NCBI GenBank assembly: GCA_022839995.1
Contig: JALHIN010000014.1
Location: forward strand, 2,664-66,663
DNA length: 64,000 nt
Origin: Synergistota bacterium
GTDB lineage: Bacteria; Synergistota; Synergistia; Synergistales; 79-D21
Reading direction: 5' to 3'
The position numbers and the translations under genes are program-made. Below are positions 1,008 through 63,269 of this stretch, in pieces. A model generated the notes under the pieces. The model was given only the letters and a program-made list of their open reading frames with translations, was not told the origin of the DNA and did not search any database. Positions within the stretch are counted from its first letter, which is position 1, and every line of letters begins with the position of its first letter.

Positions 1008-2726
1008 ATGGTGCGCGAACTTTCGATCGTTCTTTGCGGGGCAGCGGGGCAAGGGGTTCAGACCGTTGAGGTCCTGCTGGTAAGGGCCTTGGGGAGAAGC
1101 GGCTTCCATGTTTTCTCCACAAAGGAATCAATGTCCCGTGTCAGAGGGGGCAACAATTCTACGGAAATTCGGGTTTCGGAGGAACACACGGAGGCCTTTG
1201 TCGATCGGATCGACCTTTTGGTCCCGCTCAACAGCGGCCTTCGAAAGAATATCTGGAAGCGGCTCGGCCCCGATACGCTCGTGCTTGGAGACAGGGAAGA
1301 ACTGAAAGAAGAATTCGCAAGCAAGGAGTTTCGGTTCCTCGACGTCCCCTTCCTGGAAATTGCAAGGGAAGCGGGGGGCGCTGTCACCGCGAACAGCGTC
1401 GCAGCAGCCGTTCTATGTGCCCTTTTTCGAATCGAGTTCGAAATCCTTGACGACCTCCTGAAGGAGCGGTTTGGAAAAACTCCGGAAGTTCTGGAAAAGA
1501 ACCTGCTTTCTGCAAAAAAGGGATACGAGCAGGGCGTCCGACTTCTGGAAGAGGGCGTTTTCGCCCTGAAAACGCCCAAGCCTGACCCGAACTGGCGTCC
1601 CTTGCTGATCGACGGCCACAAGGCGGTTTCTCTCGGGTCGCTCGCCGGGGGGTGCAATTTTGTAACGGCTTACCCCATGTCTCCCGGATCCGGTGTGCTG
1701 GCCTTCATGGCGCAAAACGCTTCGCGGTTCCAGATTGTCGTGGAGCAGGTAGAGGACGAGATCGCGGCGGTCAACATGGCACTTGGGGCCTGGTCTGCCG
1801 GGGCGCGTGGAATGGCCACGACGTCGGGTGGAGGTTTCGCTCTCATGGAAGAGGGGATCAGTCTTTCTGCGGTTACGGAAATTCCCCTGGTGATCCACCT
1901 GGGGCAAAGGCCCGGTCCTGCTACCGGCATGGCGACCCGGACTGAGCAAGCGGACCTGGAGCTGGCCCTTTACGCGGGTCACGGGGAATTTCCGCGGGTT
2001 CTGTTCGCTCCCGGAAACGCAAGAGAGGCATTTGAACTTTCCAGGCTGGCCTTCGATTGGGCGGATCGATACCAGGTCCCTGTGTTCATCCTGACGGACG
2101 AATACCTCCTGGACAGCATCTTCGAATTAGAATCCCTTCCGGTAGAGAGTGAACCCTTTTCCCGCCATTTCGTGGAAACGGAGCCGGGTTACGCGAGGTA
2201 CCGGGTAACGGAAAACGGCGTTTCGCCGAGAGGGATCTTCGGCCACGGCCGGGGCCTGGTCCGTATCGACAGCCACGAACATGACGAGAAGGGACATATC
2301 GAAGAAGACTTCGACGTCCGCGAGCGCATGCAGAAAAAGAGAATGTCGAAACTTCGGCTCCTCGAGGCGGCAGCTCTCCCGCCGACCGTAAAGGGAGATC
2401 CCCAGGCGCAAACCAAGGTCTTTTGCTGGGGGTCGACGGGACCGATCGTAGCCGAAGCGCTTGACCTGCTAGGAAGGGAAGATGTTTCGATGGTTCACCT
2501 GAAGCAGGTTTACCCCTTGCACCCTTCTGTCCGGACCCTGGTGGAACAGGCAAGGAGGGTCGTCGTCGCGGAGGGAAACTCGACCGGCCAGCTTGCCCGC
2601 TTGATCCGGCTTTACACGGGCAGGGAGGCTGAGCACCGGCTTTTGAATTTCAGGGGGCACCAGTTTTCCGTCGAGGAAGTTTCCGAGGGTCTCGGAAAAA
2701 TCCTGGAAGGGGGGGAACCGGAATGA
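1008..2726 (+). CDS. 2-oxoacid:ferredoxin (acceptor) oxidoreductase, alpha subunit with fused gamma-like N-terminal domain
   Basis: 572 aa. The N-terminus IVLCGAAGQGVQT is gamma-domain-like and is followed by a KorA/PorA-like core (AYPMSPGS..., TTSGGGFALM). Its stop overlaps the beta subunit start (ATGA). Substrate is not assignable from sequence. Confidence 0.85.
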   Translation: MVRELSIVLCGAAGQGVQTVEVLLVRALGRSGFHVFSTKESMSRVRGGNNSTEIRVSEEHTEAFVDRIDLLVPLNSGLRKNIWKRLGPDTLVLGDREELKEEFASKEFRFLDVPFLEIAREAGGAVTANSVAAAVLCALFRIEFEILDDLLKERFGKTPEVLEKNLLSAKKGYEQGVRLLEEGVFALKTPKPDPNWRPLLIDGHKAVSLGSLAGGCNFVTAYPMSPGSGVLAFMAQNASRFQIVVEQVEDEIAAVNMALGAWSAGARGMATTSGGGFALMEEGISLSAVTEIPLVIHLGQRPGPATGMATRTEQADLELALYAGHGEFPRVLFAPGNAREAFELSRLAFDWADRYQVPVFILTDEYLLDSIFELESLPVESEPFSRHFVETEPGYARYRVTENGVSPRGIFGHGRGLVRIDSHEHDEKGHIEEDFDVRERMQKKRMSKLRLLEAAALPPTVKGDPQAQTKVFCWGSTGPIVAEALDLLGREDVSMVHLKQVYPLHPSVRTLVEQARRVVVAEGNSTGQLARLIRLYTGREAEHRLLNFRGHQFSVEEVSEGLGKILEGGEPE

Positions 2727-3589
2727 ATCCGAGGGAGTACGACATCGAGCCGGTCGATTTGTCCTGGTGCCCAGGTTGCGGCAATTTCCAGATCCTTTCG
2801 GCCCTTAAGGAAGCCCTTGCGGAGCTGAAGATCCCACCCCAGGAAGTGGTGTTGGTTTCCGGGATCGGCCAGGCTGCGAAGACCCCGCATTTTATGAAGG
2901 GCCACATCATCCAGGGACTCCACGGGCGGGCTCTCCCCGTTGCCACTGGCGTGAAGGCGGCAAATCCAGGACTGACCGTTTTGGCGATCGGCGGAGACGG
3001 GGACATGTACGGAGAAGGAGGGAACCACCTGCTGCATACAATAAGGAGAAATCCCGACCTGACCAATCTCGTTCACAACAACATGGTTTACGGGCTGACA
3101 AAGGGACAGGCATCACCGACAAGCCCCCTGGGGCTGAAGACCCCGGTCCAGGTCGAGGGAGTGATATCGGAACCACTCAATCCGGTGGCCCTGGCCATTT
3201 CGCAGGGAGCTTCGTTCGTGGCCCGGTCCTTTTCTGCTGAAACCGAGCTGACGAAGGATCTCATCAAGGCGGCGATCCGCCATAAGGGGTATGCTCTCGT
3301 CGATATTTTCCAGCCGTGCGTCTCGTTCAACAAAGTGAATACCTACAAGTGGTTCCGGGAAAACACGTTTGTGCAAGAGAGCAGCCCTGAGGAATTGAGA
3401 GACCGCCGTAGGGCAATGGAACTGGCCCTGTCTGGGCCTCCCTTCCCCCTCGGAATCCTCTACCGGGAAGCATCCGGAAGGCCGTCGTTCGAGAACCTGC
3501 TCCCGGCGTACCGGAGAAACAGTGAGCCCCTCTGGAAGCGGACTCCCGATCGTGATGGAATCGAGGCCTATGTCGAAACGCTTAGGTAG
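2723..3589 (+). CDS. 2-oxoacid:ferredoxin oxidoreductase, beta (TPP-binding) subunit
   Basis: WCPGCGNF, SGIGQAAK and GGDGDMYGEGGNH match the TPP-binding signature of KorB/PorB-type beta subunits. Confidence 0.85.
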   Translation: MNPREYDIEPVDLSWCPGCGNFQILSALKEALAELKIPPQEVVLVSGIGQAAKTPHFMKGHIIQGLHGRALPVATGVKAANPGLTVLAIGGDGDMYGEGGNHLLHTIRRNPDLTNLVHNNMVYGLTKGQASPTSPLGLKTPVQVEGVISEPLNPVALAISQGASFVARSFSAETELTKDLIKAAIRHKGYALVDIFQPCVSFNKVNTYKWFRENTFVQESSPEELRDRRRAMELALSGPPFPLGILYREASGRPSFENLLPAYRRNSEPLWKRTPDRDGIEAYVETLR

Positions 3590-3612
3590 GGGAAACCGAA
3601 AGGAGGTTGGGA

Positions 3613-4227
3613 ATGATGACTGAAGACATGAGGATCAAGCCTGGGGACATCCTGAAGGATTTTCTGCTGTTCGACCAGGACAAGAACGAGTGGAGGCCTT
3701 CTTCTTGTAAGGGGAAGAGAATTCTGCTGTCCTTCCACCCCCTGGCCTGGACCCCGGTCTGTGCCGACCAGATGAAGTGCCTGGAGAGGGACATGGCAGT
3801 TTTTGAAAGCCTCGACACCGTGCCGGTGGGCATCAGCGTCGATTCTGTTCCCTGCAAGGCTGCCTGGGCAAAAGAGCTGAAGCTCGAGAAGCTGAGGATC
3901 CTTTCGGACTTTTGGCCTCATGGCGCGGTGGCGAAGGAAATGGGGCTTTTCAGGGAAACGGAAGGCTTCTCGGAGCGCGCCAATGTTCTCGTTGACGAGC
4001 AGGGCGTCGTCGTTTTCTCGAAAGTGTACCCGATCTCCAAGCTGCCCGATCTTCAGGAGATCGTGCATTTCCTCAAGGAACTGCACCATGCCGGAGTGGA
4101 GGGGAATGTGCCGGCAAAACAATGCATGGTGGACTTGAAAGGCAATTCCCTTTGCGTTGAAGATTCCAGGAATGCGGGCATTCAGTCGACCTCTGACCGG
4201 CACTTGGCCGAAGGAGGGGAGGGATAG
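3613..4227 (+). CDS. peroxiredoxin, AhpE-like 1-Cys type, with ~45-aa C-terminal tail
   Basis: HPLAWTPVC fits the Prx motif PxxxTxxC, and LSDFWPHGAV resembles mycobacterial AhpE (from memory). AGGAGG at 3601-3606 lies 6 nt before the ATG at 3613. Confidence 0.85.
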   Translation: MMTEDMRIKPGDILKDFLLFDQDKNEWRPSSCKGKRILLSFHPLAWTPVCADQMKCLERDMAVFESLDTVPVGISVDSVPCKAAWAKELKLEKLRILSDFWPHGAVAKEMGLFRETEGFSERANVLVDEQGVVVFSKVYPISKLPDLQEIVHFLKELHHAGVEGNVPAKQCMVDLKGNSLCVEDSRNAGIQSTSDRHLAEGGEG

Positions 4228-4230
4228 TGA

Positions 4231-4731
4231 ATGCGTCCTGAAAAGGGGACACGGGCCCCGGAATTCAGGCTGGAGGCTGCTGGGGGAAAAACCTTCTCGC
4301 TTTCCGATTTCAGGGGGAAGTGGGTGGTCCTGTTCTTTTATCCGAAAGATGGGACAAAGGGCTGAACCGAGGAGGCGGTCGCCTTTTCGGGCAGGATGCC
4401 CGAGTTTGAATTGGAGGATGCCGTCCTTGTCGGGATCAGCGCCGATTCGGTCAAGTCCCATGAACGGTTTGCCGAGAAAAACGGAATCAGGACCCTGCTC
4501 TTGAGCGATCCGGAAAAGGGAGTGATCCGGTCCTACGGGGCCTGGGGGGAAAAAAAGATGTACGGCAAAATTGTTGAAGGGATCGTCCGCTCAACGTTTC
4601 TGATCGATCCGGAAGGAACAGTGAGATGGACCTGGATTCCCGTAAAAGTGCCCGGGCATGCGGAGGACGTGCTTGAAACGCTCCGGCGGATAAAGGAAGA
4701 TTTTCCCAAGCAGTCCGAAGGGGGGAAATGA
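4231..4731 (+). CDS. bcp: Bcp/PrxQ-type peroxiredoxin with in-frame UGA (predicted selenocysteine) at the peroxidatic position
   Basis: ATG at 4231 follows GGGGAGGG. The frame is continuous to TGA at 4729-4731 except for TGA at 4363-4365. The translation FFYPKDGTKG[UGA]TEEAV equals PxxxTxx(C->U). Both flanks are Bcp-like along their full length (~166 aa). A hairpin lies directly 3' of the UGA. Confidence 0.7.
4363..4402 (+). promoter_or_regulatory. UGA codon plus candidate bacterial SECIS hairpins
   Basis: Hairpin 1 has stem 4367-4376 (CCGAGGAGGC) paired with 4381-4390 (GCCTTTTCGG, including 2 G-U pairs) and loop GGUC at 4377-4380. Hairpin 2 is CGGGCA/UGCCCG at 4388-4402 with a GGA loop. Confidence 0.5.
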
Positions 4732-4732
4732 A

Positions 4733-5077
4733 ATGAAAAGACCTTTCGTTCCTTTCTTGGCATCGATCGTCCTGGTTTTCCTGTGCGGTATCGCTGCGGC
4801 GCATCCCCCCTCTTCCCTGGAGGCTGCTCTCCAGCCCGACGGGAAACTCCGGATTCTTGTTTCCCACACGGTCAACGACCCGGTAAAACACTTCATCAAT
4901 CGCGTTGTCGTCTCCAGCGGAGGAAAGGTGATCGCCGAGGAAAGATTCAACCAGCAGGCGGACAGGACAGGGCTCGTCGTCGAGATCCCGGCGGGTGATC
5001 TCTCAAAGGGACAAACCGTGCTGGTCGAGGCGGATTGCAACATTTTCGGAAGCTTGAAAAAGGCCTTCACCCTTTGA
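4733..5077 (+). CDS. exported superoxide-reductase-like (desulfoferrodoxin Fe-domain-like) protein with variant metal site
   Basis: Signal peptide MKRPFVPFLASIVLVFLCGIAAA|HPP. The segments AHPP, SHTVNDPVKHFI and EADCNIFG parallel the SOR motifs KHVP, HPxxxxHxI and CNIHG (from memory), but the last His is Phe. The gene starts 1 nt after the bcp stop. Confidence 0.5.
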   Translation: MKRPFVPFLASIVLVFLCGIAAAHPPSSLEAALQPDGKLRILVSHTVNDPVKHFINRVVVSSGGKVIAEERFNQQADRTGLVVEIPAGDLSKGQTVLVEADCNIFGSLKKAFTL

Positions 5078-5134: not shown

Positions 5135-5887
5135 TCAGGGCTTCCAGGAAAGCTCGGCGATTTTCCTGAAATTGAAGTTCAGGATCGCCTCGGCTGAGGG
5201 TTTCCCTCCCTCTGATAGGGCTTTGAAATCGCTCTCTAGGGCCTCGTAGGCCTTTTTCCTTCCCAGATCCACTTCATGTTCCCTGACGGTTTGAACAATT
5301 CGAAGAAGCTGCTTGTAGACCTCAGGAGCGTTCGTGAGTACGGGGCCCGTTTCCCCGAGCTGGATGCAGTAGACATAGGTCAGGATTTCCTTCCCCTGGT
5401 ACTCGGGCAACCTGAAAAAGGCCGGGAGAGCCGGTGAAACATAGAGAAGGATTCCACGGGGAACGGAAAGCCTCGGGCGGATGGCATCCCATAGCGTTTC
5501 TCCGATAGGGCTGACCGCAAGCCAGAGTCGGGGCTGCCGGCTTAGAAGCGAGATCCAGAGAACGGTTCCCTGCGAACGGTCGTTCCAGTTGACAAATGAA
5601 AGTTTCCAGATAAGGTCAGGTTTTGAGTCCCGATCCACTTTCAGGGTGGAAGAAATTTCCCCGGTAAGCGAAAAGCCAACGATCTCTGTTACGGGCTGGA
5701 TTCCCGCAGGTGTCCGGAGGACGGCTTGGGACACGACACCGGCTTCTTCCCTTAGGACGAGATAGATGGGATAACCGGGAACGGAAAGGACCCGGGTGTG
5801 CGCAAACGCGGTCCGGCTTCCGGCAATAACCGCAAAAACGGCAAGGAGCCATGCGATAGTGAGGACTCGTTTACGTGTTCCTTGCAT
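5135..5887 (-). CDS. hypothetical exported protein (250 aa)
   Basis: N-terminal signal peptide MQGTRKRVLTIAWLLAVFAVIAGSRTAFA. GGGAGG precedes the ATG. I recognise no motifs. Confidence 0.6.
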   Translation of the reverse strand: MQGTRKRVLTIAWLLAVFAVIAGSRTAFAHTRVLSVPGYPIYLVLREEAGVVSQAVLRTPAGIQPVTEIVGFSLTGEISSTLKVDRDSKPDLIWKLSFVNWNDRSQGTVLWISLLSRQPRLWLAVSPIGETLWDAIRPRLSVPRGILLYVSPALPAFFRLPEYQGKEILTYVYCIQLGETGPVLTNAPEVYKQLLRIVQTVREHEVDLGRKKAYEALESDFKALSEGGKPSAEAILNFNFRKIAELSWKP

Positions 5888-15536: not shown

Positions 15537-16013
15537 ATGAAATGCCCTATTTGTGGAGCTGGCGACACCCGTGTGATCGAAACCCGGACGGCCGACGAGG
15601 ACCGCATCGTGCGTCGGCGTCGTGAATGCGTTTCGTGTCAGTCGCGGTTCACGACCTACGAGAGGCTTGAGCCCAGGACTCTTCTCTGGGTAGTTAAGAA
15701 GGACGGTCGAAGGGAAGCCTTCGACAGGGAAAAGCTCCTCAAGGGAATGGCCAAGGCCTGCGAGAAACTGCCGGTCCCGCTCGAGAGAATCGAAGAAGCG
15801 GTGGCCGAAATCGAGGAATCCCTGCGAAACACGGGACAGGGGGAAATCTCGAGCGTGCGCGTTGGAGAAATGGCCATGGAAAAACTGAGGGGCCTCCACC
15901 AGGTTGCCTACGTCCGTTTTGCTTCGGTATACCGGGAATTCACCGACCTCTCGGGCTTTACCCGGGAAATTTCCAAACTCCTCGAAGAAAGGGATGAAAA
16001 GAATGGCCGATAA
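15537..16013 (+). CDS. nrdR: transcriptional repressor NrdR
   Basis: MKCPICGAGDTRVIETR...RRRRECVSCQSRFTTYE is the zinc ribbon, followed by an ATP-cone. Confidence 0.9.
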   Translation: MKCPICGAGDTRVIETRTADEDRIVRRRRECVSCQSRFTTYERLEPRTLLWVVKKDGRREAFDREKLLKGMAKACEKLPVPLERIEEAVAEIEESLRNTGQGEISSVRVGEMAMEKLRGLHQVAYVRFASVYREFTDLSGFTREISKLLEERDEKNGR

Positions 16014-18132
16014 CAGCGAAATGCTGGCCGGGCGACAGATGCAGCTTTTCGGAAGCCGGGCCGAGTCGACCGACCTCCTTCTCATGGTCGATGCCCTGGC
16101 ACAGGAGGAACGATCCCCCTGGAAAGCCGAGCGCATCCAGAAAGCCCTGATCCTGGAGGCAGGAGTCGAGCCTCAGCTTGCCGCGGAGATCGCGGCGGAG
16201 GTTGAAGAGGACCTCGTCCGGTGCAACCGGGAACAGGTGACGACTACGCTGATCCGGGAGATGGTCAACGTCAAGCTGTTCCAGAGGGGCCTGGACGCGA
16301 AACTGAAGGACCACAGCCGTATCGGGATTCCTCTTTTCGACCTGGAATCGATGATGCTGTCCCCGAATCACGAGAACAGCAATACGACGCACAACCCGGA
16401 GTCGATCAACCTCTCGATCGCAGAAATGGTCCTGAAGGAATATGCCCTTACGAAGGTCTTTTCTCCTGACATCGCGGAAGCTCACTTGACGGGAGACATC
16501 CACCTTCACGACCTGGGGATGATCAACAGGCCCTACTGTTCCGGGCAAAGCATGGCTTACGTCGAAAAGTACGGGCTCAATTTTCCCTGCATCACGAGCA
16601 TCTCGGCACCCGCCAAACACGCGGACGTCCTCCTTGCGCACGTGTTGAAGATGACCTCCGTCCTTCAGAACAATTTTGCGGGAGCGATCGGCTGGGATGC
16701 GGTCAACGTCTTTTTCGCTCCCTACATCGAAGGAGAAAGCGACGAGAGGGTGAAGCAGCTTGCCCAGATGCTGGTTTTCGAATTCAACCAGCTGGCCGGA
16801 GGACGGGGGGGGCAGGTTGCCTTCACGGACATCAACCTTTACTACGAGGTTCCGAAACATTTCCGGGACGTGCCCGCGATCGGCCCCGGAGGGATGACCA
16901 CGGGCAAGACCTACGCGGACTACGCCCCCGAATCGAAGCGTTTCCTGAAGGCCCTCATGGATGTTTACCTGGAGGGAGACAGTCGCGGGCAACCTTTCTT
17001 TTTTCCGAAACCCCTTCTGCATATCACGGATGATTTCTTCAAGGAACCTGGCTGGGAAGAAATGTTGCACCTCGCCTGCCGGGTTGCTTCGGAAAAGGGC
17101 AACACCTATTTCGTGTTCGACCGCGGCGGGGTCGCCAAGCTTTCCGAATGCTGCAGGCTCAGTTTCGAGCTGACGCCGGAAGACCTCGAAGAAGCCCGAA
17201 TGCCCTGGAAGATGCGCTACTGTGCACTGCAGAACGTCACGATCAACCTCCCGCGCCTCGCTTACAGGAGCGGCGGGGACTATGACGTCCTCTTCGAACT
17301 GCTGGATCACGAGATGGAGCTGGCGGGCAGAGCCCACCTGGAAAAGCGCCGTTTCATCCAGGAAATCCTTTCGCTCGGGAAAAAAGGACCCCTGAACACC
17401 CTGTGTGTCGATCACGACGGGGAAACCTACATCCGGATGAACAAGGCCAGCCATCTCGTCGGAATCATCGGCCTCAACGAGCTTGCCCAGGCGATGACCG
17501 GGCACGAGCTTCACGAGGATCCGAAGGCCATGGAATTTGCCCTTGCCGTCATCAAATTCATGGAGCTCAAATGCGAAGAGCTGTCCAGCCGCACCGGGTT
17601 GAAAATCGTGCTGGAGCAGACCCCCGCGGAAAGCACGGCTTACCGCCTCGCCAAGTTGGACCTGCGCTATTTCCCGGACCAGGCAAGCCGGTACATCCGG
17701 GGAAACCGGGAAACCGGTGAGATTTATTACACGAACAGCAGCCACTTTGCCTACGATATCTCGATGGACCCGATCGAAAAGGTGCTTGAAGAGGGGCGTT
17801 TCCATCCGATGATCAAGGCGGGAGCCATCACCCATGTGTGGCTCGGAGAGCACCAGCCTGACCCGGGAGCCCTGGCTTCGTTCGTAAGGAAGATCTTCCA
17901 GCACTCGGAAAGCGCCCAGGTGGCCTTCAGCCCCGAATTCACGGTCTGTAACGACTGCGGCAAGGTGGTCCGGGGGCTCCGCGAGGACTGCCCTGCCTGC
18001 AGTAGCTTGAATGTCGATGGAATCACAAGGATCACCGGATATTTCACGCGGACTTCGTCTTGGAACGCCGGCAAGAGGGCGGAACTCCGCGACAGGAAAA
18101 GGGTGGCCATTCCCCTTGATGCAGATTCCTGA
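15994..18132 (+). CDS. nrdD: anaerobic ribonucleoside-triphosphate reductase (class III)
   Basis: C-terminal CNDCG...CPACSS zinc site and glycyl-radical motif RITGYFTR. The gene is ~710 aa. The start (15994 or 16003) overlaps the nrdR 3' end. Confidence 0.9.
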   Translation: MKRMADNSEMLAGRQMQLFGSRAESTDLLLMVDALAQEERSPWKAERIQKALILEAGVEPQLAAEIAAEVEEDLVRCNREQVTTTLIREMVNVKLFQRGLDAKLKDHSRIGIPLFDLESMMLSPNHENSNTTHNPESINLSIAEMVLKEYALTKVFSPDIAEAHLTGDIHLHDLGMINRPYCSGQSMAYVEKYGLNFPCITSISAPAKHADVLLAHVLKMTSVLQNNFAGAIGWDAVNVFFAPYIEGESDERVKQLAQMLVFEFNQLAGGRGGQVAFTDINLYYEVPKHFRDVPAIGPGGMTTGKTYADYAPESKRFLKALMDVYLEGDSRGQPFFFPKPLLHITDDFFKEPGWEEMLHLACRVASEKGNTYFVFDRGGVAKLSECCRLSFELTPEDLEEARMPWKMRYCALQNVTINLPRLAYRSGGDYDVLFELLDHEMELAGRAHLEKRRFIQEILSLGKKGPLNTLCVDHDGETYIRMNKASHLVGIIGLNELAQAMTGHELHEDPKAMEFALAVIKFMELKCEELSSRTGLKIVLEQTPAESTAYRLAKLDLRYFPDQASRYIRGNRETGEIYYTNSSHFAYDISMDPIEKVLEEGRFHPMIKAGAITHVWLGEHQPDPGALASFVRKIFQHSESAQVAFSPEFTVCNDCGKVVRGLREDCPACSSLNVDGITRITGYFTRTSSWNAGKRAELRDRKRVAIPLDADS

Positions 18133-18805
18133 TTTCCCGATGGTCGGCGGGTACCTCCCCACGTCGTTTCTGGACTGGGAGGGGCACGTCGTCGCTGTCG
18201 TCTTTGTAAGCGGCTGCAACTTCCGTTGTCCGTTCTGTCACAACGCACCCCTGGCGACGGGCATGGCTGAAGGGCTGAACACCCGGTCAGTTCTTTCGGA
18301 TATCTGGAAAAGGCGACTTTTTCTTGACGGTGTCGTGATCAGCGGAGGGGAACCCACGCTTTACCCGAACCTGCAGGAACTGCTCGAGTGGATACGGAAA
18401 AAGGCGGAGCTCCCGGTCAAGCTGGACACGAACGGATCCCGCCCGGAGATCCTCGAGCGGCTTGTTCGCAGCGGACTGGTCGATGCCGTGGCGATGGATG
18501 TCAAGGGGCCCTGGGAGAAGTACTCGGTCCTTTCGGGAGTTCCCGTTGAAACCGATCGGATCCGAGCCTCCATCGGTCTTTTGAGGGCGCTCCCGATCTG
18601 CTACGAGCTCAGGACGACGTTTGTCCCGGGCCTGCTGACGATTGAAGACATGAAGCGTGTCCAGCTTCAGCTCGAAGAAGATCCGCGGTGGGTCGTCCAG
18701 CTCTTCCGGCCCGAAAACCCGCTGGATCCGTCCCTACGAAACACCCCCCCCCCGTCGAAGGCGGAGATCGCGTCCGCGCTGCCGGGGGTCAAGATACGGG
18801 GGTAA
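18119..18805 (+). CDS. nrdG: anaerobic RNR activating protein (radical SAM)
   Basis: [27 protein letters not shown] carries the CxxxCxxC motif. The gene overlaps the nrdD stop. An alternative ATG is at 18140. Confidence 0.85.
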
Positions 18806-32231: not shown

Positions 32232-32235
32232 TCGC

Positions 32236-34086
32236 TTGAACCGGAAAAGAAGGTTCAAAGCAGGATTACGAAGGGTTTTCGGGTGGCTGCTCGTTTCGCT
32301 GTTTATCCAGGTCCTGCTCGTTTCCCTGGCTTTCGCCATGGAGGATCCCCGGCAGGAGATGAAACGGTTGCTCGAAGAGGCCCCAAGCCTGTCTTCCTAT
32401 CCAGCGGTGAAAGCGCTAGTGCTCTCAAGGTCGGTCGAAAACCGGCTGCTGGCAGACGGCAGCATGGAACGGAAGACCCGGTGGATCATCCTGTACCGGG
32501 GATCCCTCCCTGAAGGGTGGCAAACCTGGAGACTCCCCGCACCGGAAGGGGGGACCGCGCGGTTCGTTCGGGCCGAGCGGTATTCAGTCCTGGCAATCGA
32601 AAAGGCCGACCGCCTCGGGATCTCCGAAGGCGGCAACGGCGTCGCTGTCTTAAGGATCCCCGAATCGAGCGGAGAATCCATCCTGTACGTCGAAACCGCC
32701 CAGGTTTTCCCCCGTCGCTTCGAACTAGACGACCTGGTCAGCCTGGAACTGGACCTTCCCCAATGGGAATTGAGCATCGAAGTCACGGTGCCCGAAGGAA
32801 GCAGGCTGAGCTGGGCTGCAAGCGGAATCGGTCAGCCGGAACGAAGCCGGGAAAAGGGGATCGAACGGTTTTCCTGGAACGCGAAGAACCTTCCGCCCAT
32901 GCCCAAACGCACCCTCCTAGACCGGGGAATCCCAGCCTTGGGGTTCAGCCTGAAAAGCGGCCTCGTGACGTCCCTCAGAACGGTGCAGGACATCGAAAAG
33001 GGGAGTTCGCGACTGCCGCAAAGACTCTCGCGCCTGCTTTCCGGGAAAAACCCGGAAAAGACCGCGAGGGATTTCGTGGCGGCCTTGACCGCTGGGGACA
33101 ACATGGAAACGGTGCTGCCGAAAGAATCGGTACGTACCCCCGGCGGTGTTTTCCCCGAAAACGGGCCATGGACGGAATGGGAACGGACCCTCTTTGCCGC
33201 CCACGGCTTGAAGTCACTGGGCTGGTCGGTCAGGACCTGGTGGCTCCCCGCAATCCCAGTAGGACCTGAGCCTCCAGCCGGGATTGCCCTTTGGACCTCT
33301 CCTGTGCTTGAGGTGTCGGCACCAAGAAGCGGACAAAGCTTCTTTTTTACTGCCAGGCCCGACGGTGTTTTCGGCAGGACACCGAGCTGGCTGTATGGGG
33401 CAACCCTCTACCGGCTGGAAGGGGACAATGTCCTGAAGACGAAAATTCCCGAGGGGAGTCCTTCGGGGAACAGGCTTTCCGCGAAATGGCAGCTGAAGCT
33501 TGATGAGGCGGGTTTTGCCCGAGGAAAACTCCTTGTAGAGCTGAAAGGAGGCTGGGACTTCCTCCTTCGCGACGGAGAACGATCCCTCGGGGAAAGGGCG
33601 CTCCGCCTGCTCCAGGACCTGCTTTCCGGGACTCCATTCGCTTCCGGGATGGGGGAACTGAAGTTTTCGGAATCGACAAGCGGAATAGAAATCAGCGTCC
33701 CGGTAAACGGCCTTTTGGGCATCGCCTCTCAGAAGGACCTTCTCGTCCAATTCCCTTCGGTGTCGATTCCAGGGATACGGGAAATTCTCGAAGAAACCGG
33801 AACGGTCAAGCTGAGGTTCCCGTTCTCCGTCAGGCAGGAGCTCGTCCTGGAACTCCCCGCGGGATTCCGCGTTCTGGAACCCCCTTCCCTGAAGAGGAGA
33901 ACCGTCGGACGGACGGCCGTCGAAGAAACCTTCAGGAACATTGAAAAGAAATCCAGGGTGGAGACGGAACAATTGGTGACGGTTTCGGCTTCCGGCTTTG
34001 AACAGAACGATGCTGCGGGTTTGAAGGATACCCTGGCGCAGGTCCTGAGATGGGCAACGAACTCGATTCCGCTGCGAAAGCGTTGA
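32236..34086 (+). CDS. hypothetical exported protein (616 aa); tentative DUF3857 / degenerate transglutaminase-like / DUF3858 architecture
   Basis: The TTG start lies 4 nt after the secA stop. Signal peptide MNRKRRFKAGLRRVFGWLLVSLFIQVLLVSLAFA. The domain call rests on memory of the family layout only. I see no catalytic Cys motif. Confidence 0.55.
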   Translation: MNRKRRFKAGLRRVFGWLLVSLFIQVLLVSLAFAMEDPRQEMKRLLEEAPSLSSYPAVKALVLSRSVENRLLADGSMERKTRWIILYRGSLPEGWQTWRLPAPEGGTARFVRAERYSVLAIEKADRLGISEGGNGVAVLRIPESSGESILYVETAQVFPRRFELDDLVSLELDLPQWELSIEVTVPEGSRLSWAASGIGQPERSREKGIERFSWNAKNLPPMPKRTLLDRGIPALGFSLKSGLVTSLRTVQDIEKGSSRLPQRLSRLLSGKNPEKTARDFVAALTAGDNMETVLPKESVRTPGGVFPENGPWTEWERTLFAAHGLKSLGWSVRTWWLPAIPVGPEPPAGIALWTSPVLEVSAPRSGQSFFFTARPDGVFGRTPSWLYGATLYRLEGDNVLKTKIPEGSPSGNRLSAKWQLKLDEAGFARGKLLVELKGGWDFLLRDGERSLGERALRLLQDLLSGTPFASGMGELKFSESTSGIEISVPVNGLLGIASQKDLLVQFPSVSIPGIREILEETGTVKLRFPFSVRQELVLELPAGFRVLEPPSLKRRTVGRTAVEETFRNIEKKSRVETEQLVTVSASGFEQNDAAGLKDTLAQVLRWATNSIPLRKR

Positions 34087-38710: not shown

Positions 38711-40057
38711 GTGCTGAAAAACGCCTTTGAGAGGATCCCGCCCCATAGCCTGGAAGCGGAAAGAGCCGTGCTTGGCGCCTGCCTGCTGGATCGGGATGCC
38801 CTTCTTCTCGTGACGGAAACCCTCTCGGGGGAAGATTTCTACGAAACCCGGCATCGCCTGGCATTCGAATTGATTCTCGATATGGCGCGGAAAGACAAAC
38901 CTGTCGATCCGCTGACGGTCTGGGAGGAAATCTCGAGGAGGGAGATGGCGGACCGCCTCGGTGGGCAGGGCTTCATCGCGGGACTGATCGACACGGTTCC
39001 GACCATCGCCAACGTGGAATACCATACCCGAATCGTCAGGGACAAGTCGGTTCATCGAAAGCTGGTCCAGGTCGGAAGCGACATCGTAAAACTCGGGTAC
39101 GCCGAAGATCGTGAAATGGAAGACATCCTCGACGAAGCCGAGAGGTCCGTTTTCGAAATCACCCGCCGCGGGGGAGAACGGAATTTCCGACACATCGGGG
39201 ACATCCTTGGAACAGCCTTCCAGCAGATTGAAACGCATTACCAGCAACAGGAACCGGTTACCGGTATCTCATCCGGCTTTATCGATTTCGACAGGCTTAC
39301 CGCCGGTTTCCAGCCGGGTAGCCTCAACATCATCGCCGCGCGCCCCTCGATGGGGAAAACGGCCCTCGCATTGAACATCGCCCAGCATGCGGCTCTCGAA
39401 AGGAAAAAGCCGGTTCTCGTCTTCAGTCTCGAGATGGGGGGCGAACAACTCGCGCAACGAATGCTGGCTTCCGAGGCGCGGGTCAATGTTCATGACCTGA
39501 GGACGGGAACGTTCCATGAAAGTGCCTGGGAAGCCCTGGCGGATGCAGCGGGGCGTCTGTCCCAGGCCCCGATTTACATCGACGACAGTTCGGTGCTATC
39601 GACCCTTGAACTGCGTGCACGGTGCCGTCGGTTCAAGGCTAGAACGAACGACGTGGGCATGGTCGTCGTAGACTACCTTCAATTGATGCACCTGCCGCGA
39701 CCGACAGACAGCAAGCAGCAGGAGGTAGCGGAAATTTCCCGGGCCCTAAAGGGAATCGCAAGGGAACTGGAGGTCCCGATCATCGCGCTTTCACAGCTTT
39801 CCCGGGCCGTCGAGCAGCGGCAGGACAAGCGGCCGCAACTTTCCGACCTTCGGGATAGCGGTGCGATCGAACAGGACGCGGACTTGGTCATCCTCCTTTT
39901 CAGGCCAGGGTATTACTCTACAAACCCGGAGGAAGAAGACAACATCGCCGAGGCGATCATCGCCAAGCACCGGAACGGCCCGACGGGGACCGTCCCCCTG
40001 GTTTTCATCCGGGAATACACCCGTTTTGTGAGCGCTGAAAGATTCCGCCCATCCTAG
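38711..40057 (+). CDS. dnaB: replicative DNA helicase
   Basis: PPHSLEAERAVLGACLL, Walker A AARPSMGKTA, and LSQLSRAVEQR...LSDLRDSGAIEQDAD. Confidence 0.95.
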   Translation: MLKNAFERIPPHSLEAERAVLGACLLDRDALLLVTETLSGEDFYETRHRLAFELILDMARKDKPVDPLTVWEEISRREMADRLGGQGFIAGLIDTVPTIANVEYHTRIVRDKSVHRKLVQVGSDIVKLGYAEDREMEDILDEAERSVFEITRRGGERNFRHIGDILGTAFQQIETHYQQQEPVTGISSGFIDFDRLTAGFQPGSLNIIAARPSMGKTALALNIAQHAALERKKPVLVFSLEMGGEQLAQRMLASEARVNVHDLRTGTFHESAWEALADAAGRLSQAPIYIDDSSVLSTLELRARCRRFKARTNDVGMVVVDYLQLMHLPRPTDSKQQEVAEISRALKGIARELEVPIIALSQLSRAVEQRQDKRPQLSDLRDSGAIEQDADLVILLFRPGYYSTNPEEEDNIAEAIIAKHRNGPTGTVPLVFIREYTRFVSAERFRPS

Positions 40058-40082: not shown

Positions 40083-41954
40083 ATGAATAGAAATCACCCA
40101 GAAACCCGGGGATCCTTTCCCACCAGTCCCAGCAGAAACAGCAAGGAGAATTTCTCGGCAGGGTTCCTTCCGGAATGGCTCTTCTATCCGTTGATCACCG
40201 TGTCGTTGGTGATCCCGAACCTGGTTTTTGCCCCGGGTGCCTTTTTTTCCCAGTCCCTCCACCTTTTGAAGTGGGTCACCGCCTTTACGCCGATCGCGAT
40301 CCTCGCCTTTGCTGCGGGGCTATCGATCGTAGCCGCCCCGAAGGACAGGGGGGAGTTCAGGGTCGATCCCCTCGGATGGCTCTGGCTCTTCCTCCTTCTT
40401 TACGTCACTGCGCAGCCTCTCTGGGTAAGGGTGACCTCCGTACCCACTTTCGTCCGGGAGTGGCTGTTCTTTGCCAGTCTTTTCATCACCGCCATTCTCT
40501 GTTCAAACATGTTCCGGCGGAGGGACATGATGATGCTGGTCCTTTTCGGAGCGGGAATGAACGCGGCCCTGAACGTCCTTTTTGCGGAGCTGCAGGTACG
40601 GTCGGTTCGGCTTCCTTTCTTCATCCTGCCCGTGCCGGGCAATTACGTGGGGAACACCGGCCAGCAGAACATGCTCGGCATTTGGGTGGCGATGGCGGTC
40701 CTTTCCGGACTTGCACTGCACCTGATGCTGCTGGAGGAGAGGGCAAAAGGGCACCGGCAGAATTCCTCGGCAATTTTCGTCGGCATGAACCTGTCGGTCC
40801 TGGCGGTCAACTCCTGGGGAGTTTTTTCGACGACGAGTCGCCAAAGCCTCCTGGCACTTTTGGTCGGGATCACGGTGTTCCTGCTAGCCGGGGGAAGGCT
40901 GAGGGGAAAAGACTTCGTCCGGTCGATGATCCCCGGTTTGCTTGTCATCGCGCTGGCCATGGGTGCCGCCTATCAGTTCAACACAGGGCGCACGCAGGCT
41001 TTCGTGGAAAAGGCCGAGAGCCTCGCGAAAGGCGCGATCGGCGAAAAAGGCGAACTGTCGGAGGCCGATTCCGGGCGGCTGAGCATCTACGCGACGGCCC
41101 TCACGATGCTGAAGGAACACCCCCTTGGGGGTGTTGGATTGGGGCATTTCAAATGGAACTACCTGGATGCCCAGCGTGAACTTTTCCGGCGCTACCCCGA
41201 TTCGAAACTGAAATGGCAATACACGATGTGGGCTCACAGCGAAATGCTGCAATGGTTCTGTGAAACGGGAATCATCGGCGGGATTTTCCTTTTGGCCATC
41301 CTTTCCTGGTGTGCCCTACGGGTGCTGAAGGCGATAAGGTCAAAGAAGGAGGTCTCGCTGGAAGGGCTATGGTCCGTGGGGATGCTGACGCTGATCTGGA
41401 CGGTCGCCCTTTGGGGGGAAAGGCCGTTTCACAGGATCGAGGACGCTCTTTGGATGAGCCTGGCGTTTTCGTTCCTGGGCCGGGAGTTCCTTCCAAGGGA
41501 TTTTGCCTGGGCCGAAATCCGGCGCCCGTTGATCTGGAAAGGTTTCGGAATAACGGTCGCCGTGATCGCCCTGGCCGGGCTCGTGCTGCTGGGAAAAGGT
41601 GTTGTGGCGGACCATGCTCTCGCTATGGCTTTGCAGACCCGGGACGCCCAGGTGCAGAAATCGCTGATCGACCGGGCGGCTGGAAGCCTGCTGTTCAGGG
41701 ATCTTGCTGACCGTGCCTACGCGGAACACTATCTTGCCGTGGCGGTGGCTAGACGGGACGGGGAAGCCCTCGCAGAAGGACTCGCAAGGCTCGAAAACTA
41801 TTTCTTCAGGCAGCCGCAGACAAGGGAACTGAACGTGCTGATCGGTTGGTACGGGCGCCTTGGGAGCAGGGAAAAACTCGAGCTGTTCACCTCGTACCTG
41901 AAGCCTGGATCCTACTCGGTCCAGCCCGTCGAGGCCCTTTCTTCAGCGCCGTAA
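40083..41954 (+). CDS. O-antigen ligase (Wzy_C) family membrane protein with helical-repeat C-terminal extension
   Basis: >=10 hydrophobic helices. SGRLSIYATAL...HPLGGVGLGHF...WAHSEMLQWFCETGIIGG fits the Wzy_C/WaaL-type loop motif (H-x-x-x-L-Q-x-x-x-E-x-G). Confidence 0.7.
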   Translation: MNRNHPETRGSFPTSPSRNSKENFSAGFLPEWLFYPLITVSLVIPNLVFAPGAFFSQSLHLLKWVTAFTPIAILAFAAGLSIVAAPKDRGEFRVDPLGWLWLFLLLYVTAQPLWVRVTSVPTFVREWLFFASLFITAILCSNMFRRRDMMMLVLFGAGMNAALNVLFAELQVRSVRLPFFILPVPGNYVGNTGQQNMLGIWVAMAVLSGLALHLMLLEERAKGHRQNSSAIFVGMNLSVLAVNSWGVFSTTSRQSLLALLVGITVFLLAGGRLRGKDFVRSMIPGLLVIALAMGAAYQFNTGRTQAFVEKAESLAKGAIGEKGELSEADSGRLSIYATALTMLKEHPLGGVGLGHFKWNYLDAQRELFRRYPDSKLKWQYTMWAHSEMLQWFCETGIIGGIFLLAILSWCALRVLKAIRSKKEVSLEGLWSVGMLTLIWTVALWGERPFHRIEDALWMSLAFSFLGREFLPRDFAWAEIRRPLIWKGFGITVAVIALAGLVLLGKGVVADHALAMALQTRDAQVQKSLIDRAAGSLLFRDLADRAYAEHYLAVAVARRDGEALAEGLARLENYFFRQPQTRELNVLIGWYGRLGSREKLELFTSYLKPGSYSVQPVEALSSAP

Positions 41955-50928: not shown

Positions 50929-53112
50929 ATGAAGGCGGACGGAAAGAACGCGGTTTTCTCCAAGAACGCGATCAAGGTCCTTGAAAAACGGTACCTGCGC
51001 AAGGACGAAGAAGGAAATGTCCTTGAAACCCCGGAGGAAATGCTGTGGCGGGTTGCCACTTCAGTCGCGGCTGCAGAGGAAGCCTGGAACCAGGATCGGG
51101 AAAAGCGAGCTGCAGAATTTTACGAGATCATGGCATCCCTGCAATTCCTACCGAACTCTCCGACGCTGATGAACGCGGGTTCCGAACTGGGGCAGCTCTC
51201 GGCCTGCTTCGTCCTGCCGATCGGGGACAGCATGGAAGAAATCTTCGATACGCTGAAGGCGACGGCCCTTGTTCACAAGAGCGGGGGCGGAACGGGGTTC
51301 AACTTCTCGAGAATCCGGCCTGCTGGAGATCGCGTTCGATCGACATCCGGGGTTGCTTCGGGTCCGATTTCCTTCATGGAACTCTTCAACGAGGCGACGG
51401 AAGTCGTGAAGCAGGGAGGGATGCGAAGGGGAGCCAACATGGGGATCCTGGAAGTCACCCATCCGGACATCTTCGATTTCATCCGGGCAAAGACGGCCCG
51501 CGGAAGACTATCGAATTTCAACCTCTCGGTGGGAGTGCCGGATTCCTTCATGCGGGCGGTCAAGGAAGACTCGGATTGGGAACTACGAAACCCCCGAACC
51601 GGGAAGACCGTTTCCACGGTCAAGGCTGCGGAAATTTTCGATTTGCTGGTCCAATCGGCATGGGCCACCGGAGATCCCGGACTGGTTTTCCTCGACCGGA
51701 TCAACGAAAAAAACCCGACGCCGCACATCGGCCGGATCGATTCGACGAATCCCTGCGGGGAACAGCCCCTTCTTCCCTACGAGAGTTGCAACCTGGGATC
51801 GATCAACCTGGTCCGGTTTTTGGGCAGTGACGGGGATTTCGACTGGGAGGCCCTGGCGGGTACGATCGAGACGGCGGTTCGCTTCCTCGACGATGTCATC
51901 GAGATGAACCATTATCCCCTGCCGGCGATAGGAGAGATGAGCCGGAAGAACCGGAAAATCGGCCTAGGGATCATGGGATGGGCTGAGGTCCTCTTTGAAA
52001 AGGGGATTGCTTACGGGAGCCGTGAATCGCTGGAGCTTGCCGAGGAGGTCATGTCGTTCATCCAGTCGAAGGGGCACGCCGCTAGCGAGGCATTGGCCGA
52101 GGAAAGGGGCTGCTTCCCCAACTGGAAGGGCAGCCTTTGGGAGAAATTGGGGAAAAAAATGAGAAACGCGACGGTGACGACGATCGCCCCGACAGGAACC
52201 CTTTCGATCCTGGCAGACTGCTCGAGCGGCATCGAGCCCGTTTTCGCGCTAGCCTACCAGCGGAAAACCTTCGAAACGGAAACCCTGAACGTCGTAAACG
52301 GCATCCTTTTAAGGAAGCTCGAGGAAGCGGGGCTCATGCGCCCGGGACTGATCGAGGCGATCGGGGAGTCAGGCTCGCTGAAAGGGCTTGATCTCCCGGA
52401 AGATTTCAAGAGGGTCTTCCGGACCTCCCACGAAATTCATTTTGAAGATCACGTCAGGACGCAGGCGGCCTTTCAAAAGTACACCGACAACGCAGTCAGC
52501 AAGACGATCAATTTTCCGAACGAAGCGGGCCTGGAGGAGATTCGCCAGGCATTTTGGCTTGCCTTCGATTCGGGGTGCAAGGGGATCACAGTCTACCGGG
52601 ACCGCTGCAAGGAAAACCAGGTCCTGTACTCAGGACTCAAGGAGAAGGCCGAACCCCCCAAAACCGAAGCAAAGACCGTGCCGAGACGCAGGCCCGCGAT
52701 GCTCCGGGGAACAACGGTCAAGATCCCGACTGCCTTCGGCAACCTCTACCTCACGGTAAACGAAATGGACTCAAGGCCGTTCGAAGTCTTCGCGACGCTG
52801 GGAAAATCAGGCAAGGACACGCAGGCTCACACGGAGGCCTTGGGCCGCCTGATCTCGCTGGCGCTTCGAAGCGGAGTGCCCGTCGAAGAAGTCGTCAGCC
52901 AGCTCAAGGGAATCGGCGGAAGCCAGCCGGTGTGGGAGGAAGACGGAATCATCCTGAGCCTTCCGGATGCGATCGCCAGGGGGTTGGAAAAGGCGGGGGG
53001 CTTCAAGGTCGAGGAATCAACCGTCGAGATGTGCCCCTGCTGCGGTTCTTCCTTAATCCACAGCGAGGGTTGTACGCGCTGCAGGAGTTGCGATTTTTCC
53101 AAATGCGATTAA
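50929..53112 (+). CDS. nrdJ: adenosylcobalamin-dependent ribonucleotide reductase (class II)
   Basis: FSKNAIKVLEKRYL, LQFLPNSPTLMNAG and the active-site STNPCGEQPL...SCNLGSINL. The gene is ~727 aa, with a C-terminal Cys-rich tail CPCCGS...CTRCRSC. Confidence 0.9.
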   Translation: MKADGKNAVFSKNAIKVLEKRYLRKDEEGNVLETPEEMLWRVATSVAAAEEAWNQDREKRAAEFYEIMASLQFLPNSPTLMNAGSELGQLSACFVLPIGDSMEEIFDTLKATALVHKSGGGTGFNFSRIRPAGDRVRSTSGVASGPISFMELFNEATEVVKQGGMRRGANMGILEVTHPDIFDFIRAKTARGRLSNFNLSVGVPDSFMRAVKEDSDWELRNPRTGKTVSTVKAAEIFDLLVQSAWATGDPGLVFLDRINEKNPTPHIGRIDSTNPCGEQPLLPYESCNLGSINLVRFLGSDGDFDWEALAGTIETAVRFLDDVIEMNHYPLPAIGEMSRKNRKIGLGIMGWAEVLFEKGIAYGSRESLELAEEVMSFIQSKGHAASEALAEERGCFPNWKGSLWEKLGKKMRNATVTTIAPTGTLSILADCSSGIEPVFALAYQRKTFETETLNVVNGILLRKLEEAGLMRPGLIEAIGESGSLKGLDLPEDFKRVFRTSHEIHFEDHVRTQAAFQKYTDNAVSKTINFPNEAGLEEIRQAFWLAFDSGCKGITVYRDRCKENQVLYSGLKEKAEPPKTEAKTVPRRRPAMLRGTTVKIPTAFGNLYLTVNEMDSRPFEVFATLGKSGKDTQAHTEALGRLISLALRSGVPVEEVVSQLKGIGGSQPVWEEDGIILSLPDAIARGLEKAGGFKVEESTVEMCPCCGSSLIHSEGCTRCRSCDFSKCD

Positions 53113-53135
53113 AGTTAAAGCAGGAGGGCCCGGGA

Positions 53136-54086
53136 ATGGACAGGAACCCCGCGGTCAACGGAAAACAGGGCAGGAAACCGAACGTGCGCTGGGGATATTG
53201 GGCCCTGCTGGCGGTGATCCTGGCGGGGAGCGCATCGGCATACCTTGCCTGGTGGTCGAATTTCAATTCGATGCGCCCTGAATTTGCCGTCGCGGAACCT
53301 TTTTCGATCCATGAAAAGACAAAGGCCAGGACGGTCCTCCTGTGGAGCGAATCCGTCCTTGCCTCCCCATTGGACGGAGCCGTGCATTACCCGCAGGGAG
53401 TGGAGCCTGTTCGGGTTTCAAAGGGCGAAACCGTCGCGGAAGTGATTTCCGGAAATCGCAAAGCAGTTATCCGGGCGCCGCAGTCGGGATATTTCCTGCC
53501 TGGGTTGGACGGGCTTGAGGGAAAGTGGAATTTCTCCGACCTGTGGCCTGGAGATGGTCAGCTTCCAGCCGTTTCAAAGTTCAGGAGGATTGGGGAAGGC
53601 AGCCGAGTCGGGAGGGGAGACCCGGTGGGAAAAATCCTCCCGCAGCCCCAGGAATTGAGGGCGATCGCCTACGTGGATGCGGACGAAGCGGTGAGAAGAC
53701 AGATCGGAAACGGGATTCTCCGTTTCTCGCTTGCAGGAGAGAGGCCGCAACGGGCCACGGTAAGGGCGGTGCAGGACTTCGGTCCGAAGGTGAAAGCCTA
53801 CTTGAGCCTGCCCGTCTTTCCCCTTTGGATCGCTGTTTCAAGGGAGAGGGAATTCGAATTTTTCCAGGGAGAAAAAAAAGGGATTGTGCTGCCGGAGAGC
53901 GCAATCCTGCAGAAGGAGGGGAAATTGGGAGTCTTCGCTTTTGTCTCGGGCAAGCTAGAATACCTCCCCGTGCTCGGTCAGCCGCTTCCCGGTTCCCGTT
54001 TCCTCGTCACAAATGGACTCCGGGCAGGCGATCTTGTCCTGAGCCGAGCCGAAGCAGGGGCGGAAAGGAAGGTTTTGCTCTGGTGA
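53136..54086 (+). CDS. single-pass membrane protein with HlyD/membrane-fusion-like C-terminal barrel (tentative)
   Basis: N-terminal TM helix WGYWALLAVILAGSASAYLAWW. The C-terminal pattern ...LPESAILQKEGKLGVFAFVSGKLEYLPVLGQ...VTNGLRAGDLVL resembles HlyD-family adaptors. It has a GTGA overlap with yggS. Confidence 0.5.
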   Translation: MDRNPAVNGKQGRKPNVRWGYWALLAVILAGSASAYLAWWSNFNSMRPEFAVAEPFSIHEKTKARTVLLWSESVLASPLDGAVHYPQGVEPVRVSKGETVAEVISGNRKAVIRAPQSGYFLPGLDGLEGKWNFSDLWPGDGQLPAVSKFRRIGEGSRVGRGDPVGKILPQPQELRAIAYVDADEAVRRQIGNGILRFSLAGERPQRATVRAVQDFGPKVKAYLSLPVFPLWIAVSREREFEFFQGEKKGIVLPESAILQKEGKLGVFAFVSGKLEYLPVLGQPLPGSRFLVTNGLRAGDLVLSRAEAGAERKVLLW

Positions 54087-63037: not shown

Positions 63038-63269
63038 TTTGCCGTGTCCCTGAAAGAGCCCGGATTTCTTCCCAAAGGGCCTCGATCTCTGTGGCTTCTT
63101 CCGGCTGGAGCTTTTCGATCGCAAAGCCTGCATGCACCAGCACGCGATCTCCGGGACGAGCCCCTTCCAGCAGGTCGGTCCGGATTTCCACCTCGATGGT
63201 TCCAGCCCGGCCGATGGCGGTGCAGGGGCCTGTGATCTCGACAAGGACATGCGGTACGGCAAGGCACAT
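63030..63269 (-). CDS. hypC: hydrogenase maturation chaperone HypC
   Basis: Begins MCLAVPHVLVEI (the essential N-terminal Cys2 motif MCLxxP). GGGAGGG lies 6 nt upstream. The product is 79 aa. Confidence 0.9.
   Translation of the reverse strand: MCLAVPHVLVEITGPCTAIGRAGTIEVEIRTDLLEGARPGDRVLVHAGFAIEKLQPEEATEIEALWEEIRALSGTRQNG

Follow-up and report, generated by a model that had tools for sequence, protein, structure and literature searches.

Positions 4231-4731 (+) of the window, by which we mean the whole 64,000-nucleotide stretch of DNA that was analyzed, very probably hold a genuine selenocysteine (Sec)-decoded gene for a PrxQ/Bcp-like peroxiredoxin (here Sec-Prx) of a Synergistaceae bacterium. 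The gene has a single in-frame UGA at the codon of its peroxidatic residue; this codon is under purifying selection, it is followed by a SECIS-compatible hairpin, and the encoded protein contains no Cys.

Gene structure and reading frame

The features of the gene are as follows.

4213-4223 (+): Shine-Dalgarno-like GGAGGGGAGGG, read from the sequence, 7 nt 5' of ATG 4231
4231-4731 (+): predicted Sec-peroxiredoxin gene, PrxQ/Bcp-like, AhpC/TSA fold; ATG 4231, stop TGA 4729-4731, 166 codons
4363-4365 (+): in-frame UGA at the peroxidatic position, predicted Sec45 of PxxxTxxU

Translation from the ATG at 4231-4233 gives a frame of 166 codons that is interrupted only once, by TGA 4363-4365, in the peptide VVLFFYPKDGTKG*TEEAVAF. 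A full-length Bcp/PrxQ homolog of ~166 aa, beginning at ATG 4231 behind a ribosome-binding site, had been proposed in a preliminary description of this DNA, and both elements are found in the sequence, the site being GGAGGGGAGGG at 4213-4223 and the frame running to the TGA that ends at 4731. As that description also stated, the mechanical list of open reading frames (ORFs) contains solely the 111-aa piece at 4396-4731 for this gene. Both halves of the gene score as coding in a codon-usage model for which the window's confident genes served as the training set, and the same model rejects a long antisense ORF at 3568-4461. Truncation of the locus by gene callers, another point of the preliminary description, extends to relatives: in the assemblies examined, the gene is split into pieces of 44 and 111 aa or yields one of 106 aa.

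Conservation of the UGA codon

The TGA at 4363-4365 had been placed at the catalytic Cys position, and in an alignment of 116 homologs this peroxidatic column is indeed Cys in all 110 Cys-form homologs. A motif scan of homologous genome loci found the peroxidatic Cys in 75 of 80, and the remaining loci were read manually. The TGA is present at the peroxidatic codon in two deltaproteobacterial MAGs as well, Desulfobacterales bin36 (L003; CP070746.1, TGA 3124-3126) and Deltaproteobacteria BM512 (L015; PKTT01000039.1); both genes are PrxQ-type, both are split by ORF calling, and their local peptide is FFYPKDNTSG*TAEALEF. The three database proteins closest to Sec-Prx are themselves fragments of 111-117 aa, and the contigs that encode them, together with the Synergistaceae MAG L001, carry TGA at the identical codon with the identical split. 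As read from the aligned sequences, the UGA column is the classical signature of a Sec/Cys pair.

Among the Synergistaceae, the TGA is retained in four diverged lineages (the window together with L089, L001, L081, and L088), across which synonymous sites are saturated (pS 0.55-0.85, dS ~1) and dN/dS is 0.07-0.23 both 5' and 3' of the TGA. The 166-codon gene with its TGA was recovered in 18 independently assembled contigs (NCBI, JGI, ENA, and Logan), with no frameshift or extra stop in the gene in any of these assemblies. Preservation of the TGA-containing gene is far beyond chance. The earlier reading of a frame conserved through the stop is borne out on both flanks in all four lineages, and the disrupted sequence 3' of the TGA that might have been found in relatives is absent from the 18 intact assemblies.

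These observations bear on two simpler explanations. The gene could be a pseudogene, a Cys-peroxiredoxin struck by a nonsense mutation with its two halves decaying, as might be suspected from the fragments that gene callers report and from the absence of visible Sec machinery within the window. We exclude such decay, as extremely improbable, because the identical TGA codon is kept in four lineages with saturated synonymous sites and low dN/dS on both sides and in 18 assemblies free of frameshifts and extra stops; moreover, a chance nonsense mutation would not strike, in each of three groups that are separate in phylogeny, the very column of the catalytic Cys. An error of sequencing or assembly that turned TGC or TGT into TGA is excluded on the same grounds and has a negligible probability, since the same TGA appears in 18 independent contigs from four sources.

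Between the TGA and ATG 4396 (codons 46-55), the changes between lineages are synonymous only (ACC/ACG, GAG/GAA, GTC/GTT/GTG, and TCG/TCA), and therefore these codons appear to be translated. This weighs against a split gene, in which the 44-aa and 111-aa polypeptides assemble or the 111-aa polypeptide alone is made. Although ATG 4396 has purine-rich sequence upstream and opens the 111-aa ORF, the peroxidatic residue would lie in neither piece, and we consider such an arrangement very improbable compared with a single, Sec-decoded 166-codon gene. Suppression at synonymous sites after the UGA (7/12 vs 30/93, p = 0.07) is only suggestive.

A degenerate-pattern scan of metagenome contigs for further lineages returned only close relatives of those already known. 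When the window was scanned with the codon model for further genes interrupted by TGA, only ordinary gene junctions came back, and the 64 kb yielded no second selenoprotein gene.

Candidate SECIS hairpins

Two overlapping hairpins lie downstream of the UGA.

4386-4404 (+): hairpin B, the favored SECIS candidate, UUCGGGCA-GGA-UGCCCGAG, 8 bp, loop GGA at 4394-4396
4367-4390 (+): hairpin A, the one noted in the preliminary description, CCGAGGAGGC-GGUC-GCCUUUUCGG, 10 bp, overlapping hairpin B

We compared both with the published bSECIS criteria (PMC13188914), namely, a loop of 3-9 nt, an upper stem of 4-16 bp, a G in the first two loop positions, a UGA-to-loop distance of 16-37 nt, and an MFE of <= -7.5 kcal/mol. 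The stable hairpin reported to start 1 nt after the TGA, hairpin A, is present and reaches -16.8 kcal/mol alone in the window, but its spacing of 11 nt from the UGA is outside the 16-37 range, and its stability falls to -6.9 kcal/mol in L081. Its pair 6:27 is broken in three of the four lineages, and its z-score against shuffled sequences (-1.7) is alone not beyond chance. Because hairpin A is too near the UGA and decays in one lineage, hairpin B is the better SECIS candidate. The loop of hairpin B is 28 nt from the UGA, and all of its parameters fall within the bSECIS limits in all four lineages. Folded as a fixed hairpin, it has -11.1 kcal/mol in the window and -8.9 to -11.1 kcal/mol across the four lineages, and a slightly longer segment folded freely gives -9.5 to -11.7 kcal/mol. 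Its cells are 97% paired, and pair 27:39 alone varies, as G-C, G-U, or A-U.

Covariation in either hairpin, assessed on only four distinct sequences, is anecdotal and lacks statistical meaning; a comparison with the Cys-form homologs is the stronger test of a SECIS. At the homologous position, structures within the bSECIS limits occur in 5/6 Sec-form sequences versus 2/75 Cys-form loci (Fisher p ~5e-6). The deltaproteobacterial Sec forms L003 and L015 have a loop AGUU[C] 16 nt downstream of the UGA. A bacterial-SECIS model had been suggested as a check in the preliminary description. Scanned against Rfam, whether with gathering or with permissive thresholds, the sequence matched no SECIS family and gave no meaningful hit; the published bSECIS limits accommodate hairpin B. 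On these sequence comparisons, hairpin B (4386-4404) is probably the SECIS, and hairpin A is possibly an accessory or alternative structure.

In the mechanism that we propose, SelB loaded with Sec-tRNA(Sec) would be recruited by an mRNA stem-loop just 3' of the UGA, most likely the one at 4386-4404 with its GGA loop 28 nt past the UGA, and UGA 4363-4365 would then be decoded as Sec (U45) and not as a stop.

Search for the Sec machinery

Essentially every coding ORF in the window was annotated with Pfam or NCBIfam, and by this annotation none of selA, selB, and selD is present in the 64 kb. An ARAGORN search of the window gave no tRNA at all, and in 11 related loci it gave a tRNA-Val only, with no tRNA-Sec. 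No Sec machinery was seen in the ~10-kb flank of sister contigs, extended at both ends via POR-alpha and HypE. The ORFs at 38711-40057 and 40083-41954, a candidate pair of SelA/SelB size, were identified as DnaB and an O-antigen-ligase-like membrane protein, respectively, and the ORF at 60972-61958 (-), considered as SelD, is HypE (TIGR02124, 342 bits, versus 25 bits for the selD model). HypE has AIRS domains in common with SelD and can be mistaken for it; it belongs to a hypD-hypE pair at 60972-63262 (-) for [NiFe]-hydrogenase maturation, with hypC found in sister contigs.

Near-cognate read-through of UGA occurs in bacteria. With no Sec machinery seen in the window or its flanks, the UGA might be read by a standard tRNA, either under a reassigned code (Trp or Gly) or through near-cognate read-through (Trp or Cys). 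A reassigned code is excluded because TGA ends 10 of the 20 confident genes in the window, tightly coupled junctions included, and is the most frequent normal stop there. With Trp or Gly as its peroxidatic residue the enzyme would be inactive, and yet strong purifying selection acts on the gene; the conserved SECIS-type hairpin after the UGA is nearly absent from Cys-form homologs. The phylum, furthermore, is overwhelmingly Sec-using: Sec is used by 13 of the 14 sequenced Synergistetes, and most are selenoprotein-rich (PMC5029168, whose supplements give selenoprotein counts per Synergistetes genome, without family names). We therefore regard any reading by a standard tRNA as unlikely and favor decoding as Sec; Sec-Prx would place the source genome among the users of Sec. 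The complete Sec-insertion system that the preliminary description expected of the organism has indirect support, from this phylum-level figure and from the evolutionary conservation of the UGA.

Family assignment and proposed catalytic mechanism

For profile scoring, the in-frame stop (U) was replaced by Cys. Sec-Prx matches Pfam AhpC-TSA (PF00578) with 133.2 bits against a cut-off of 26, over profile positions 2-123 of 124. The top NCBIfam model is PrxQ (154.6 bits, short of its equivalog cut-off of 260), followed by Bcp PRK09437 (119 bits, short of its equivalog cut-off of 140), and the top PDB matches are all Bcp/PrxQ, the best of them being Xanthomonas PrxQ/Bcp. These scores agree with the preliminary assignment of a Bcp/PrxQ-like peroxiredoxin. 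The PrxU model NF040737 gives only 62 bits against a cut-off of 270, which is below an equivalog match. In the translation, the active-site motif is P38-K-D-G-T42-K-G-U45, and the catalytic Arg is R120, where GIVRSTF aligns with GIERSTF of Xanthomonas PrxQ.

The resolving Cys of PrxQ/BCP enzymes with an atypical 2-Cys mechanism, located at CP+5 (alpha2) or in alpha3 and not universal in the subfamily, is absent from Sec-Prx. The CP+5 residue is Val50 (Leu in the deltaproteobacterial Sec forms, and Cys in 61 of 110 Cys-form homologs), Ala81 stands where Xanthomonas PrxQ has its resolving Cys in alpha3, and not one Cys is encoded in any of the 18 orthologs. A 1-Sec mechanism had been suggested from the Val at +5, and the wider lack of Cys strengthens this: with none available, Sec-Prx must act as a 1-Sec peroxidase, the selenenic acid of which would be reduced by an external thiol. 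The selenolate, held by Thr42 and Arg120, would attack H2O2 or an organic hydroperoxide to form the selenenic acid, and the protein, predicted to be cytoplasmic with 166 residues, would be recycled by its thiol partner as are 1-Cys peroxiredoxins and GPx. By analogy with PrxQ-type enzymes, for which it is the default expectation, thioredoxin is probably this reductant.

Genomic neighborhood

Proteins of the window match, exactly or nearly so, those of Synergistaceae MAGs and of assembly GCA_022839885.1. Sec-Prx is part of a same-strand cluster that includes the following genes.

1008-2726 (+): 2-oxoacid:ferredoxin oxidoreductase (POR) alpha/gamma, NCBIfam TIGR03710, 592 bits
2723-3589 (+): POR beta, PRK11869, 422 bits
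3607-4227 (+): AhpE-type Cys-peroxiredoxin, tandem paralog with PLAWTPVC, probable start ATG 3613
4733-5077 (+): 114-aa exported protein, tentatively of SOR-like fold, coupled to the Sec-Prx stop as TGAaATG

The two POR genes head the cluster (1008-3589), with synteny kept in relatives, and the conserved order is POR alpha/gamma, POR beta, the AhpE-type Cys-peroxiredoxin, Sec-Prx, and the 114-aa exported protein. The deltaproteobacterial Sec forms are found without this POR/AhpE/SOR-like context.

The AhpE-type peroxiredoxin upstream scores 82.6 bits with Pfam AhpC-TSA, matches Mycobacterium tuberculosis AhpE at E ~1e-20, and is 29% identical to Sec-Prx. It carries a C-terminal extension of ~45 residues with QCMVDLKGNSLC (CX10C) invariant in all four lineages, and it may serve the Cys-free Sec-Prx as a redox partner.

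The 114-aa ORF follows Sec-Prx in every related locus. It has a predicted signal peptide and belongs to a small family of 18 clusters, all of ~114 aa, in which H45, H53, C102, and DCNIFGSLKK are invariant. Pfam and NCBIfam gave no match, and a profile search against PDB sequences returned noise only; two homologs bear the JGI label "desulfoferrodoxin (superoxide reductase-like)." The best matches of an AlphaFold (AF2) model (pLDDT 79) are 1Fe-SOR/neelaredoxin folds (TM 0.61/0.71), with generic Ig-like folds close behind, and the model has a Phe where the last His iron ligand of SOR would be. Judging from this model, the protein may be an exported, atypical SOR-like protein.

The conserved same-strand POR/AhpE-Prx/Sec-Prx/SOR-like arrangement suggests an oxidative-stress module that would be coexpressed with the oxygen-sensitive 2-oxoacid:ferredoxin oxidoreductase, a plausible physiological role for Sec-Prx. 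A more elaborate scheme, which we think unlikely, would combine a selenium-dependent ROS module cotranscribed with POR, the CX10C tail in place of thioredoxin as the thiol for Sec-Prx, and a Synergistaceae Sec form independent of the deltaproteobacterial one. If it were true, the module would consist of an AhpE-type Cys-peroxiredoxin with a CX10C tail, a Cys-free Sec-PrxQ, and an exported SOR-like protein without the last His ligand; the Cys tail of the neighbor would resolve or reduce the selenenic acid in an interprotein peroxiredoxin relay, and the Synergistaceae Sec form would have arisen separately, along with a differently placed SECIS of its own.

Several other features of the region may be recorded here. 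A rubrerythrin gene, one more oxidative-stress gene of this neighborhood, lies ~3 kb 5' of the POR/Prx cluster, just past the left end of the window (6592-7059 in L095/L096). Farther left of rubrerythrin/CstA/POR, GCA_022839885.1 (L095, 1-6057) has prophage-like genes (SPP1_Dit, Gly_rich, Peptidase_M15, and Glyco_hydro_108), in place of which a sister metagenome contig (L096, 1-6314) has the housekeeping genes FtsX, Peptidase_M23, and adenylosuccinate synthase; the prophage is a strain-variable insertion. A 250-aa ORF at 5135-5887 (-), with a good coding score and no Pfam or NCBIfam match, neighbors the Prx cluster in all related loci, and ORFs of 617 aa at 32233-34086 (+) and 323 aa at 53115-54086 (+) likewise have good coding scores without Pfam or NCBIfam matches. 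The window also encodes two ribonucleotide reductases, at 15904-18805 (+) and 50929-53112 (+), the types being an anaerobic NrdD with a radical-SAM activase and a barrel-type large subunit with a TSCPD domain.

Comparison with known systems

The preliminary description held that Sec-containing peroxiredoxins are not new, and the literature agrees. "Peroxiredoxin (Prx)," COG1225 (Bcp)/PF00578, with the motif TxxU, is a catalogued and experimentally anchored selenoprotein family with WP_011365628.1 as its reference (PMC9312934, PMC13188914), and it ranks seventh among bacterial selenoprotein families in how widely it occurs (91 proteins from 78 organisms; PMC5029168). The gene in the window shares with this family the fold and Pfam domain, Sec (here predicted) at the peroxidatic position of PxxxTxxU, widespread Cys homologs, and a SECIS-type hairpin in the coding region after the UGA; it differs in that the Synergistaceae clade is represented only by fragments in the protein collection searched. 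The gene is real but ordinary: the Sec-Prx family and the standing of the Synergistetes as a selenoprotein-rich phylum are already known, and knowledge of peroxiredoxins and of selenocysteine decoding is unchanged. Specific to this case are the Synergistaceae clade itself, a better-supported SECIS position, the complete lack of Cys, and the tandem AhpE/Sec-PrxQ/SOR-like order. The practical value lies in annotation: every assembly examined has fragments of 44, 106, or 111 aa, as a result of which the selenoproteome and the antioxidant capacity of anaerobic-digester Synergistaceae are under-counted. The locus also contributes a well-supported Sec/Cys pair, together with a candidate SECIS from a phylum in which the preferences of this element have been little described.

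The window Sec-Prx is 48-50% identical to the deltaproteobacterial Sec forms, and the candidate SECIS is at 28 nt in the former and 16 nt in the latter. PrxU of Eubacterium (Peptoclostridium) acidaminophilum (Soehling et al. 2001, as cited in PMC9312934), given as the example in the preliminary description, is a valid precedent for a Sec-peroxiredoxin: it is a thioredoxin-dependent enzyme of an anaerobic amino-acid fermenter, likewise with Sec at the peroxidatic site. It is not, however, an ortholog of Sec-Prx (62 vs 270 bits on NF040737, a model 233 positions long); Sec-Prx is of the shorter PrxQ/Bcp type, and its nearest family is COG1225/Bcp TxxU and not PrxU specifically.

The closest solved structures are those of Xanthomonas campestris PrxQ/Bcp (PDB 3gkk, 5iph, and related entries; E ~1e-37), the active site of which aligns with that of Sec-Prx over YPKD-T-G-C/U-T and R-STF. 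These are Cys enzymes with an alpha3 resolving Cys, whereas Sec-Prx has Ala81 at that position and no Cys. Escherichia coli Bcp is also a Cys enzyme, with its resolving Cys at CP+5, the counterpart of which in Sec-Prx is Val50. The 1-Cys peroxiredoxins, such as M. tuberculosis AhpE, resemble Sec-Prx in having one redox-active chalcogen and an external reductant, but Sec-Prx is PrxQ-like, unlike AhpE, and has only 29% identity to its own AhpE-type neighbor.
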